Shown piece by piece: positions 10,981 to 60,040 of a stretch of DNA of 64,000 bases. The notes under the pieces are model-generated. The model did not search any database and was not told the origin of the DNA. It was given only the letters and a program-made list of their open reading frames with translations. Origin of the DNA: Eledone cirrhosa (taxonomy: Eukaryota); assembly GCA_964016885.1 (NCBI GenBank), contig OZ024743.1, positions 42,842,001 to 42,906,000 on the forward strand. Direction: 5' to 3'. Both the position numbers and the translations under genes were made by a program. Numbering within the stretch: the stretch's first letter is position 1; each line of letters opens with the position of its first letter.

Positions 10981-11815
10981 TTAAATGTAAGTATGTATGT
11001 ATACATACATACCTATATGTATGTATACATACATACATATATGTATACAGACGTACAGTAGTATGTATATATATACATACATGCACACACATATATATGC
11101 ACGTATCGGTTTACCGAACATTTATTATAATGCTCGGCTTGTTTGTATATAAACAAACAAACAGCCCTAATTACAAACAAACAAACTGGGCATTATAATA
11201 AATGTTCGGTAAACCGATACGTTCATATATATACGTGTGCATGTATGTATATATACACATACTACTGTACGTCTGTATACATATATGTATGTACGTATAC
11301 ATACATACATACATACTTACATTTAAGTAAGTGCCGTACTAAGAGTCAGAAATGAAATTTCGTTTCATTCTATTCCATTTATCGATTTCGGTGTGCACGG
11401 CCGACTGAACTCACTTGATATGCAAATTAAGCTGCTCAGCCGTTAATATGCATAAAGAAAGTATATACTTTCAGACGTTCAACCATCTGGCAGGAAGGTA
11501 TACGATGCTGACGATAGCTAATACGTTTGAAACTAGTACATCGTTCCTGTGTCAGTGTTGAACAAAAAGGTGACTTGGGTGCTTAAACACTGTACGGGCT
11601 GTTTGTTTGTTTACAAACAAACAAACCGAGCATTATAATAAATGTTCGGTAAACCGATACGTGCATATATATATATATGTGTGTGCATGTATGTATATAT
11701 ATACATACTACTGTACGTCTGTATACATATATGTATGTACGTATACATACATGCTTACATTTAAGTAAGTGCCGTACTAAGAGTGAGAAATGAAATTTCG
11801 TTTCATTCTATTCCA
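10981..11815 (+). mobile_element. Non-coding HHR-bearing mini-element: inverted 5' arm plus about 1.5 tandem units of about 440 nt
   Basis: 10981-11168 is an inverted copy of 11596-11764; 11190-11377 is directly repeated at 11629-11815; flanked by (TA)n. Confidence 0.8.
11503..11543 (+). ncRNA. Minimal type I hammerhead ribozyme
   Basis: cgatg-CTGACGA-tagc taatac gttt-GAAA-ctag-TA-catcg; palindromic stem III. Confidence 0.85.
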
Positions 11816-12038
11816 TATATATATATATATATATATGGTCATTAGGGGATATGCTAGCTAGGCGATATAGAAACAACAGCTAAGCCCGTAGGCTGGTTAA
11901 TGGGATAGCTCATTACACTACTGATGATTATATAAATAATGTACTGTCCAATGAGATCATATCTGGTAACTACGTAGCAGATGCCATCACAATACCTATC
12001 ACGGGATTGTGTAATAAATATATCTTCTAAATCCTTAT

Positions 12039-12463
12039 ATCTCTCTCTCTCTCTCTCTCTCTCTCTCTCTATATATATATATATATATATATATATATAT
12101 ATATATATATATATATATATATATATATAGAGAGAGAGAGAGAGAGAGAGAGAAATTATTGTAGTAAGGGGTTTTTATTAGTCACTTACATATCGACGAA
12201 ACACGTATCAGTTACGCAATAAATGTTAATATTTCGACTGCGAAATTGGTGTATTCATGTGATTCTTTATATTCTCTCTCTCTCTCTCTCTCTCTCTCTC
12301 TCTCTCTCTCTCTCTCTCTCTCTCTCTCTCTCTCTCTCTCTCTCTCTCTCTCTCTCTCTCTCTTTCTCTCTCTATCTCTCTCTCTCTCTCCCTATCTCTC
12401 TCTCTCTCTCTCTCTCTCTCTCTCTCTCTCTCTCTATATATATATATATATATATATATATAT
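12039..12463. repeat. Compound (CT)n/(TA)n/(GA)n microsatellites, representative of dozens of (TA)n, (CA)n and (GA)n tracts in the window
   Basis: Seen directly. Confidence 0.95.
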
Positions 12464-12796
12464 ACCGCTGTCCATAGTATATATATAATGGCAGCGGTAT
12501 GTATGTGTGTGCGATTTGAACAATGTAAACAAAGGGCAAATTTTAGTGCTTAATTAGTTCATAAACAATGAACTAATTAAATACTAATTTTCGCCATTCA
12601 TTTTCATTGTTCGACATATCCATATATATGTTCCTGAAAGCTCAATTTGAATCCAGTATAATGATAGCCTACTAATAACTATTATTACCAGAACTTGCTG
12701 AAATGATTACATCTGTACTACATGGTGTTCTAACAGCATTATTAGCCCTACCATAGTCTGGTACATATCATTATATATATATATACATATATATAT

Positions 12797-12988
12797 AAGA
12801 AAATATCGCAAGAAACCAGATGGACCATACCGCACCATAGTACTCGATACTTAGGGCAGTAGAGTGGGTAATAGGAAAAGAGTCAGGACCGCGACGGCTG
12901 AGGTCCGGTCGTTTCGACAGCTAGATTCAAACTAAATCTTGTTCGGATCTAGCTGTCGAAACAGTCTGGTTCCTGCCTCTTTTCCTAT
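12797..12988 (-). mobile_element. Tail-plus-fold-back mini-element (family also at 35451, 36043, 59811 and 30513)
   Basis: Shared about 85-nt block aaccagatggaccata..gtactc..tacttaggg.agtagagtgggtaatagga, followed by an imperfect hairpin ending ttcctata. Confidence 0.8.
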
Positions 12989-13068
12989 ATGTATATATAC
13001 ATATATATATATATATATATATATATATATATATATATATATATATATATATATATATATATATATAT

Positions 13069-57619: not shown

Positions 57620-57880
57620 TAAATATAAGTATGTATACGTACATACATATATGTATACAGACGTACAGTAGTATGTATATATACATACATGCACATATAC
57701 ATATATGTACGTATGGATTCACCGAACATTTATTTTAATGCTCGGTGTGTTTGTAAACAAACATCCCGAATTAAGCCGTACAGTGTCTAGCAACCATCGT
57801 TGCTCATTTGTTCAACACTGACAAAGGAACGCTGTACTAGTTTCAAGCTTATTAGCTATCGTCAGCAACGTATACCTTCC
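57620..57880 (-). mobile_element. Second copy of the 10981-11815 mini-element, with HHR at 57830-57870
   Basis: cgttg-CTGACGA-tagc taataa gctt-GAAA-ctag-TA-cagcg plus a homologous downstream block. Confidence 0.85.
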
Positions 57881-58000
57881 TATATATATATATAAAATTT
57901 CAGGTTATCAATAAAGAAGTGATAATATATCGTCACGTTAGAGATGAACAGCGTACGTGTAGGTTTGCTCAACGAGTATAAATTATATTCCGGAGAAAAT

Positions 58001-59631
58001 GTAGAAAAGATGAATATAAAATGAAAGTGCTTTTTTTTAATGCCGAATATTATGATGATGTACTTGGGAAGGCTGGACACCTAGATAATATAGAGTATAT
58101 AGTCGACGATCACCAAAACACCCAAAATAAATCTCATAGAGGTAGAAATTGCATAGAATCACCACCATACATACACTACCGCAATAAACACACTAATAGT
58201 AGCACACCACCAAACAGAAGGCGATGTAAATAGTATATATGGTACAACCCGGTCTATAAGAACTCTATTAAAACCAATCTACCCTCACAATTCTTTCGAT
58301 TAGTTAAAAAACACTTTCCAACATCACATAAATATAATAAAATCTTAAACCCTAACACTATTCAACTTTCATATTCAACCGCCCCTAATATTGAACAAAA
58401 TATAAAAAAGCTTAACGCAAAACGGTTGTATAAACGCCTTCCAACACATAACAATTCACGTAAAAGATCAGCTATAACATCACAAAACAACAAAAAACAT
58501 CCCGTCCTGCCTAAGCAACCTCATCAACCCATCCATGCCAATACAACAACGCAAAATTATAACTGTAACTGTGTCCAACCAGGAATGTGTCCGTTGAAGA
58601 ATCAGTGTCTTGAACGCAACATCTTATACAAATGTACTATCGAATCGGATAATCAGAAGTGGTACTATGTGGGGTCTACATCCATCTCCTTCAAATCTCG
58701 CCTTTATAGACATCGTTACTCGATAAAACATGAAAACCAGCGTTATGTAACAACACTCGCAGACAAGGCTTGGCAGCTGCACGAAAATAACCAACAATTT
58801 AACCTAAAATGGGATATAATAGCTTCTGCCCCTCCATATGCCAGGACAAGAATTTTGTAAATTGCGTAATATGGAATTATTTTGTATTATGAAATCCAAA
58901 AATATTTTATTAAATAACAGAATAGAGCGATCGTTATACTGTAACCATCGCTTAAAATCTACATTTTCATATTACAAACACTACCAGGATTGAACGCCTG
59001 TCTCCATCTCCGTTTGATTGTCAAAATACATATTAACATTCTCTATTAGTCTTAATTCTATAAACTCTTCTATTCTTTACCATTTAATATAAACTGCTAT
59101 AGATAAAATGAGATTTCTTAATTCAATTCCCTAATGCATATACCAGCATTGTTGTTATTCAGTAGCAGTGACAATCTCCCTCTTCCTTAATTGATACTTT
59201 ATATTTAATACTACTACACCAAACGACCAGCCCTGTCCATTGTTCAATTGGTCAAGTATAGATTAAAATAGGCGCTCCCAAATATTCTTATTTAGATAAA
59301 ATAAACCATATACTCATTGTATTCTCATTAGAAAACCTTTATATACTTGTTTACCAGTAAATTGGATTGCCATCTGTTATATACTCTCCCCTCTCTTCTT
59401 CCTTTATTACAACTAATATAAATACTTCAAATTTTCTGATTTTTTCCAATTTATCCAATATCTCTGAAGAAGTGACAACTGATTATACATTTGCTATCGA
59501 ATAATTGCTCACATTATATGATTACACAAGCAGCGATACATAGGTATTCCGTCTGTTACAGAAACATATGACGTTACCTAATAAATTCCTTTTTAAAAAA
59601 AAGCACTTTCATTTTATATTCATCTTTTCTA
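58001..59631 (+). mobile_element. 5'-truncated Naiad-type PLE with a short inverted 3'-end copy at the 5' junction
   Basis: Pseudo-ORF 58035-58993: YYDDVLGKAGH..IWYNPVYKNSIKT..KHFPTSH..SYST..CNCVQPGMCPLKNQC..LY..YVGST..FKSR..H..CKL..CNH. 58001-58040 is the reverse complement of 59593-59631. HHR-like CTGAAGA (59464)..GAAAcatatg (59561). Confidence 0.88.
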
Positions 59632-59810
59632 TATATATATATATATATATATATATATATATATATATATATATATATATATATATATATATATATACAC
59701 ATATATATACGTATATATACACACACACACACACATATATATATATATATATATATATATATATATATATATACGTATATATACACACACATATATATAT
59801 ATATATATAT

Positions 59811-60040
59811 AACGGAGGAGCTGTGGTAAGGAACCAGATGGACCATAACGCACCAGAGTACTCAATACTTAGGGTAGTAGAGTGGGTAATAGGAGAGAGT
59901 ATAACCCCGACGGCAGAGCTGAAGCCGTTTCGATGGCTATTTCTGGAATAAAGGAAGAGTTTTAAAAAAACTCTTCCTTTAGTCCAGAAATAGCTGTCGA
60001 AACGGCTTGAACTCTGCCGTCGGGGTCATACTCTCTCCTA
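59811..60040 (-). mobile_element. Tail plus about 75-bp-arm hairpin copy of the 12797 family
   Basis: ataggagagagtataaccccgacggcagag..gaagagtttt / aaaactcttcc..ctctgccgtcggggtcatactctctcctat. Confidence 0.88.

Follow-up and report, generated by a model that had tools for sequence, protein, structure and literature searches.

Paired tailed and tail-less ends in (TA)n insertions of Penelope-like elements in Eledone cirrhosa, probably formed from two separate cDNAs

In Penelope-like elements (PLEs), an inverted 5'-truncated copy, partial tandems and a tail of 30-40 bp at one end have been described (PMC8557442, PMC3846280, PMC8969392), and head-to-head palindromes have been explained by self-priming on an antisense RNA template (PMC3846280). 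The passages concerned in PMC8557442 and PMC11167929 name the formation of the inverted repeat and of the tail as unresolved. In target-primed reverse transcription of PAc/Poseidon in vitro, the PLE cuts and extends both strands, two start sites of the reverse transcriptase (RT) bound the tail, and a dimer is predicted (PMC11167929). In the present study, we analyzed a stretch of 64,000 nucleotides of Eledone cirrhosa (contig OZ024743.1, positions 42,842,001 to 42,906,000; hereafter the window), which contains many hairpin-like insertions in (TA)n tracts, together with copies of these insertions elsewhere in the host genome (3.0 Gb, 1,796 contigs). The AT-rich target and the uncleaved hammerhead RNA template of PAc/Poseidon can be counted as likenesses to these insertions; however, PAc/Poseidon belongs to another clade, and the relevant parts of PMC11167929 neither explain the inverted copy nor say that the two start sites pair in each insertion.

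Each insertion consists of two 5'-truncated PLE copies placed head to head in (TA)n, one ending in a tail and the other tail-less, and we consider it likely that these were made as two separate cDNAs primed from the two sides of a break. Fixed ends, a variable centre, PLE parents, the pairing of a tailed with a tail-less end, and, in tandem copies, the presence of tail and arm in the 5' leader ahead of the open reading frame (ORF) were observed. A preliminary description of the window had named at least nine such elements; inverted arms were re-measured at all nine positions given, and also at the element at 58.0k. Its observation is confirmed and its PLE interpretation is right in outline, although the architecture itself is already known: the inverted 5' copy, the tail and the (TA)n targeting are in print (PMC8557442, PMC3846280). 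The published tails, described as optional, measure 30-40 bp in the sections on general PLE structure, whereas tails of 77-164 nt occur here. The statistics of tail/tail-less pairing, the symmetry of arm lengths, tail-only partners and a run-off hotspot with a frequent untemplated cytosine were not found in the parts of the literature that were searched.

The elements were assigned to families A (12797 and 59811), B (45255), C (51192), D (51789), E (20394), F (30045), G (10981), H (42779, also called 42.8k) and I (58.0k). For each family, 40 candidates of a genome search were scored, and 20 to 30 loci of about 3 kb, ranked by likeness and with the window copy counted in, were fetched (numbered L below). 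The families of the nine elements have hundreds to thousands of copies each genome-wide. In the masked window, 29 local inverted matches (at least 50 bits, within less than 3 kb) were found, against none in each of 10 shuffles. The window is rich in microsatellites and (TA)n is common here (102 merged tracts), yet just 1.9% of the non-TA bases of the window lie within 5 nt of a tract edge. The tail end adjoins TA in 172 of 200 genomic copies from eight families, window copies included (background, 10.5%), and the exceptions in family G are mostly internal tandem junctions.

In every family, two ends, one with and one without the tail, are fixed at (TA)n, and the centre differs between copies. 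The inverted arm ends at query positions 77-79 in 16 of 30 copies of A, 160-166 in 9 of 30 of B, 90-93 in 21 of 30 of C, 101 in 3 of 30 of D, 63-64 in 10 of 20 of E, 136-141 in 8 of 20 of F and 105 in 5 of 20 of the 58.0k family; the copies off the shared end are single arms or extend past the fetched stretch. Among the 19 other copies of family H that were within reach, just one showed a paired inverted arm. For family C, 2,479 exact tail-less ends were counted, together with 1,636 tail ends for one terminal variant alone; a tail query with a rare variant (16 matches) was not used, and a tail-less query with 2,523 matches also matches inside tail arms and is not a count of tail-less ends.

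Inverted arms, small size and TA flanks would also suit miniature inverted-repeat transposable elements (MITEs) or other derivatives of DNA transposons, inserted in TA and amplified as units, and elements with true terminal inverted repeats (TIRs) do occur in the window (23056-23961). MITEs have a fixed interior and symmetric TIRs at both termini; here the centre differs between copies while the ends are fixed, so that these are not MITEs, one end carries an unpaired tail, and long copies enter ORFs for RT and GIY-YIG endonuclease. For A-D, F, H and I, the MITE reading is refuted; E and G have no coding parent so far, and over all families it is hardly credible. By contrast, the geometry of the hairpin at 39083 is constant in most of the 40 copies that were scored, and this hairpin forms part of a fixed repeat of about 1.2 kb (38344-39530; internal hairpin 39083-39529; about 970 genome candidates). 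The symmetric TIR element at 23056-23961 has arms of about 114 nt and contains what we take, from motifs, to be remnants of a mariner-like transposase.

The PLE origin proposed in the preliminary description was borne out in that arms and tails lead into PLE ORFs: long copies of A, B, C, D, F, 58.0k (I) and 42.8k (H) continue into them. RT and GIY-YIG motifs were read in the parents of A, C, D and F, and the endonuclease part only in B, H and I. A Pfam GIY-YIG match above the cut-off was obtained only for an element at 25 kb and one below the cut-off for 58.0k; the Pfam search with L417 gave no relevant match. Judged by motifs, A, B, C, D, F and 58.0k carry the signature of the Hydra clade, for which the label Nematis, used at first, was dropped after comparison with the Hydra section of PMC8557442. 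That clade, including Hydra-1_Obim of Octopus bimaculoides, likewise has a C-terminal GIY-YIG domain, CxCX5C, DKT and RW(R) motifs and no CCHH, as well as a (TA)n target; its hammerheads may have counterparts in the hammerhead-like motifs described below. The CxCX5C linker is present in A, B, C, F, 27.2k and 58.0k, and F has DKI. Hydra-1_Obim is listed as having no pseudo-long terminal repeat (pLTR) in the part of PMC8557442 concerned, in contrast to the present families, which show pLTRs, tails measuring 77-164 nt and two-armed copies in the thousands. The elements at 42.8k and 25-26.9k are of Neptune type by their motifs (CX2-5CxxC linker with internal CCHH, and DKG). The latter (24972-26917, minus strand) has RT and GIY-YIG with one frameshift and a 5' end at (TA)n, and no inverted copy was seen there. 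At least two PLE clades are involved, and the elements at 10981 and 20394 have no coding parent in the loci read.

In L124, L137 and L282, the tail passes into a short 5' untranslated region (UTR) and then the ORF start; arm and tail stand ahead of the ORF and are found again at the 3' end, as a tandem pLTR with tail. Since the tail runs into the 5' UTR and ORF in these three loci, arm plus tail represent both the pLTR leader of the mRNA and its 3' end. A candidate for a recently active element is the family D copy in L417 (L417:3246-9254, G000 C1), of about 4.7 kb and with both pLTRs; it consists of (TA)n, a tail-less end, the 3' UTR, 913 open codons of Hydra type, the tandem pLTR, an inverted 221-nt copy of the tail and (TA)n. 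Its protein has the CxCX5C linker, DKT and RWR (for RWK) and no CCHH, and fits all four motif criteria of the Hydra clade, although that clade is given as generally <3 kb in the corresponding section of PMC8557442.

The pairing of the ends was followed in family C with 90 of the first 100 listed tail-less ends, in genome order on contig 1. Sixty-two were directly joined to a tail partner (two of them, L161 and L162, being adjacent identical copies), five had a tail partner past a TA tract, and for 23 none was found; among the latter, L241 is a tail-less/tail-less pair and L210 has a short inverted partner without a tail. The arms of family C pair almost always as tail with tail-less (62 against 1). 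From the other side, a tail-less partner was located within the locus for 14 of 30 tail-anchored ends; a further end pairs, by its coordinates, with L153, and L333 and L334 form one tail/tail pair counted as two loci. Tail/tail partners among the fetched copies of all families are L023, L076, L124, L252, L264, L282 and L439, of which L124 and L282 are tandem contexts. Most of the apparent tail/tail joins of family E resolve as a tandem partner that ends tail-less, and L362 and L368 remain ambiguous.

If the start sites were chosen independently, many like pairs would be expected. The same holds if two single arms had been inserted independently in one TA tract and were fused later by deletion. 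Neighbours in one tract are indeed common (51192 with 51789; L161 with L162), but independent insertions would give all pairings, against 62 to 1 observed, and would mix subfamilies, whereas the tail allele and the subfamily motif of the other, non-duplicated arm agree in 20 of 20 cases at one diagnostic site, a point weakened by the possibility that the subfamilies differ in age. We regard independent insertion as disfavoured and quite improbable.

Another possibility is snap-back or self-priming, in which one cDNA, or an antisense RNA as proposed in the passage cited above (PMC3846280), folds and copies itself to a fixed stop, and later deletions make the arms unequal. In 44 elements of family C, the divergence between the arms of one element (0.021) was lower than that between elements (0.060), the arm lengths are correlated, junction microhomologies are common, and at 8963-9526 a (TA)n end seems to have undergone true snap-back. 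Of the private variants in these 44 elements, three were common to both arms and 48 were on one arm. The likeness of the arms, the 20/20 agreement and the correlation of lengths point to a shared source, without separating one RNA from two RNAs of one locus; they also fit snap-back, and the subfamily agreement contradicts neither model. Among 55 short C elements, the tail-less arm exceeded the tail arm by more than 15 nt in 28, the tail arm was the longer one in 12, and the two were similar in 15 (because the reference for scoring was of subfamily I, subfamily II arms come out up to 14 nt too short). Seven tail partners in this set hold 12 nt of arm or less and so, as they stand, contain no fold-back template. 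A long tail-less arm with a short tail partner was found at 58.0k, 27.2k, L029 and L417; in L417, the far end is tail-less, as predicted from L124. Because either arm can be longer and the tail partner may be tail only, simple snap-back cannot produce these elements, and it would need one-sided deletions of kilobases where the partner of a long tail-less coding arm is tail only (58.0k, 27.2k, L417). Single arms that are tail-less also occur and run to the same inner base, and the tail-less end corresponds to an RT start site in the in vitro results concerned (PMC11167929). Snap-back as the general origin is considered unlikely.

In the snap-back candidate of the window (8963-9693), 246 nt of single-copy host DNA are duplicated in inverted orientation around (TA)36, and the genome search found just the two arms. 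The duplication is joined to a 167-nt hammerhead-bearing repeat end with copies elsewhere. It looks like the snap-back of a cut (TA)n end during insertion, and one other candidate (L458) was seen in 5,152 TA tracts of the fetched loci.

The inner ends of the arms cluster at positions 327-331 in B, about 278 in C and 324-330 in F, on the A of CA in TCCAGT, TCCACT and CTCATT, respectively; B has TATAAAT 32 nt upstream. We call this base initiator-like after the initiator consensus. In subfamily II of family C, 573 arms end exactly at the hotspot, and by hand count the next base is cytosine in 34 of the first 100, some of which could be templated by the partner. In family B, cytosine is next in 33 of 77 arms, and 13 of the 77 are read-through variants (hand count). 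Where inner ends are joined straight to (AT)n, cytosine stands at 20 loci and a templated G at four; an arm directly on (AT)n offers no template for the cytosine. An extra C in the cDNA is the expected trace of cap copying, as established for other RTs. Among the first 100 listed, 43 loci are distinct, of which about 21 end by TA-tract overlap 3-4 nt inside, about 10 at +1, three at +1 with cytosine and about three beyond +1 (hand count).

In three other samples, from one study and under the same species label, 5,635 to 8,283 raw reads carry the tail-less end on (AT)n. They are short reads amplified by polymerase chain reaction; strand-switch joints are found at several positions, and the depth is at most 6 upstream of +1, a fall to which subfamily divergence upstream contributes. 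These reads also bear on fold-back chimeras of assembly or amplification at (TA)n, for which it can be said that no read or contig spanned the hairpin at 45255 of the window. Tail-less ends on (AT)n and strand-switch joints recur in these samples, though amplified ones; furthermore, the arms differ by 1-11%, the ends are fixed by family at thousands of sites, and bases are added at the junctions. Chimeras are thus very improbable.

For an origin from two cDNAs, the following course may be proposed. The GIY-YIG enzyme would cut both strands of the self-complementary (TA)n; one DNA end would prime at the distal RT start site and give the tail arm, and the other would prime at the proximal site and give the tail-less arm. 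The inverted arm had been said to stop short of the tail; the tail is unpaired indeed, but the arm most likely starts at the second RT start site. The 3' ends of the cDNAs would be joined by microhomology or a few added bases, and the loop would be the length difference between the two cDNAs. Starts in the 5' leader would run off the capped RNA end and yield small and loop-free hairpins, and starts in the 3' copy of the pLTR would yield long coding arms. More tentatively, and with somewhat less than even confidence, we suggest that a PLE dimer reads one RNA twice, its halves priming at the proximal and the distal site, that every insertion is born a pair, that the inverted pLTR of all PLEs is a strong-stop-like cDNA of the capped leader, and that solo hairpins are dead-end products. 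If this is true, solo hairpins would allow the RT start sites of each family, and also its transcription start, to be mapped from DNA alone.

Several points weigh against this two-cDNA scheme. In the in vitro data concerned (PMC11167929), the choice of start site did not differ between strands, and hence the strict pairing finds no explanation in them. Of 64 elements, 6 have both arms extending past the inner hotspot, above independence (Fisher p=2e-4, with a crude motif call; of the four 'past/short' calls, that for L215 is probably wrong). After insertion, palindromes lose sequence, by which either arm may shorten; arms with internal gaps are present in 51789, L003 and L106. The control for the extra cytosine, where C or G was found at none (20 against 0), is a single site 5 nt inside the hotspot that is not register-matched. 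In B and F, the hotspot coincides with the 5' edge of stem I of the hammerhead, no initiator hotspot was seen in the loci read of A, D and E, and the start site and cap at the hotspot are inferred from DNA alone.

The elements in the window are as follows.

10981-11814, plus strand: family G, non-coding; tail-less inverted arm from 10981, then a partial and a full tandem monomer (about 436 nt); minimal hammerhead-like motif 11502-11544; tail of about 50 nt at right; (TA)n on either side.
12798-12988, minus strand: divergent subfamily of family A; hairpin with tail 12798-12870 and gapped right arm.
20398-21176, plus strand: family E; the tail-less arm, 20398 to about 20592, is followed by a single complete non-coding monomer that includes a hammerhead-like motif (20808-20884); the tail, 62 nt in the family, lies at right.
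27230-29270, plus strand: B-related element without an inverted repeat; at left an inverted piece of tail only, 68% like the tail of B; long tail-less arm; broken GIY-YIG ORF with the CxCX5C linker.
30046-30442, minus strand: family F; tail of about 137 nt, tail arm reaching the initiator-like base, tail-less arm of 73 nt.
30514-30578, minus strand: single arm of family A, tail-less end only.
35452-35544, minus strand: single arm of family A, tail plus about 10 nt.
36044-36161, plus strand: minimal hairpin of family A; arms of 18 bp, loop of 5 nt, tail at right.
42779-45215, plus strand: family H, 3' end of a Neptune-type PLE; inverted arm 42779-43545, left end off (TA)n, broken GIY-YIG 43541-43975, tail 45119-45215.
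45255-45745, minus strand: loop-free hairpin of family B; tail of about 162 nt, both arms ending at the initiator-like base, hammerhead-like motif 45578-45696.
51192-51648, minus strand: near loop-free hairpin of family C; tail of about 89 nt including TA overlap, both arms ending about 9 nt inside the initiator-like base.
51789-53972, minus strand: family D; tail of 100 nt and long tail arm; inner palindrome at 53310-53751; hammerhead-like motif 53890-53925 in the tail-less arm.
57895-59629, plus strand: family I (58.0k); short inverted tailed copy 57895-58040 with tail of 109 nt, long tail-less arm with GIY-YIG ORF 58234-58860.
59812-60041, minus strand: hairpin of family A; tail of 77 nt, arms of about 72 nt.

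With these data, parts of the preliminary description can be made more exact. The one-tailed (TA)n architecture holds in general, but (TA)n is absent from the left end of 42779, and at the end of 30045 (TC)n comes before (TA)n; the tail is on the right side in 10981, 20394 and 42779. Several families are unrelated as stated, but 12797 and 59811 are a single family (83% alike). Loops were said to run from 1-2 nt to more than 1.6 kb; near loop-free and loop-free hairpins do exist, but the '1.6-kb loop' of 51789 contains the second palindrome, so that we read the element as a long insertion with two arms, one of them gapped internally. An inverted 5' copy is present at both 42.8k and 58.0k, but at 58.0k the long coding copy lacks the tail, which sits on the short inverted copy, an arrangement opposite to that in 42.8k. 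The inverted arm of 42779 ends about 19 nt short of the tail-less end of one other paired copy. The sequence at 42553-42778 stands where the left end of this element is expected and has no match in the fetched loci.

Hammerhead ribozymes had been reported in arms or loops; a pattern scan found hammerhead-like motifs (51789, 20394, 10981, 45255), but no Rfam match at the gathering threshold was obtained. The pattern matches include stem I, those in A, C and F were read by eye, and the cores are degenerate in A and B. Hammerhead cleavage was rejected as an explanation for the two fixed ends and for the inner hotspot, the predicted cut lying elsewhere (B, F, G). The tandem units of families E (about 650-690 nt) and G (about 436 nt) are non-coding and contain such a hammerhead-like motif; no coding parent was seen for E in 20 translated loci and 60 more that were only mapped, nor for G in 20 loci. 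Known here from DNA alone, E and G resemble the animal non-LTR retrozymes and non-autonomous PLEs in the portions of the sources concerned (10.64898/2026.07.22.740005; MRC1 in PMC8557442), likewise tandem non-coding hammerhead-like units, but differ from the non-LTR retrozymes in their two-armed tail/tail-less insertion form.

Further TA-flanked hairpins of apparently like architecture are present at 13071-13425, 30593-30818, 45761-46624 and 12518-12612, and relatives of those at 13071 and 30593 are present in fetched loci. A repeat at 18790-20306, with many copies in fetched loci, bears a hammerhead-like motif on both arms (19223-19256, 20133-20166) and is interrupted by a short interspersed element (SINE) and an (AAATAAA)55 array. 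A SINE inside the window resembles an octopus SINE, which makes an octopod host likely. A direct tandem of about 574 nt (92.5% identical) is located at 60831-62012.

In twin priming of L1, two primers act on one break, and in the strong-stop reaction of retroviruses a short run-off cDNA is made to the capped 5' end, with an extra G. Unlike in these systems, the two cDNAs here overlap in sequence, and the result is an inverted duplication and not an inversion. Active Penelope families of Octopus vulgaris are listed in PMC13282606, in passages that do not discuss this structure. Near-obligate pairing, an excess of length in either arm and run-off at the likely capped start add quantitative evidence on a step left open in the literature consulted, the formation of the inverted repeat and the tail. 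As thousands of young products from several families are available, models can be tested by counting. For the in vitro system that already exists, near-obligate tail/tail-less pairing and an extra base at the run-off end provide sharp predictions. For annotation, the rule is that a one-tailed (TA)n hairpin with a variable centre is a PLE product, and a hairpin with a fixed centre is not. Two RNA-to-DNA copying events per insertion, which are likely, would help to explain how PLEs insert.

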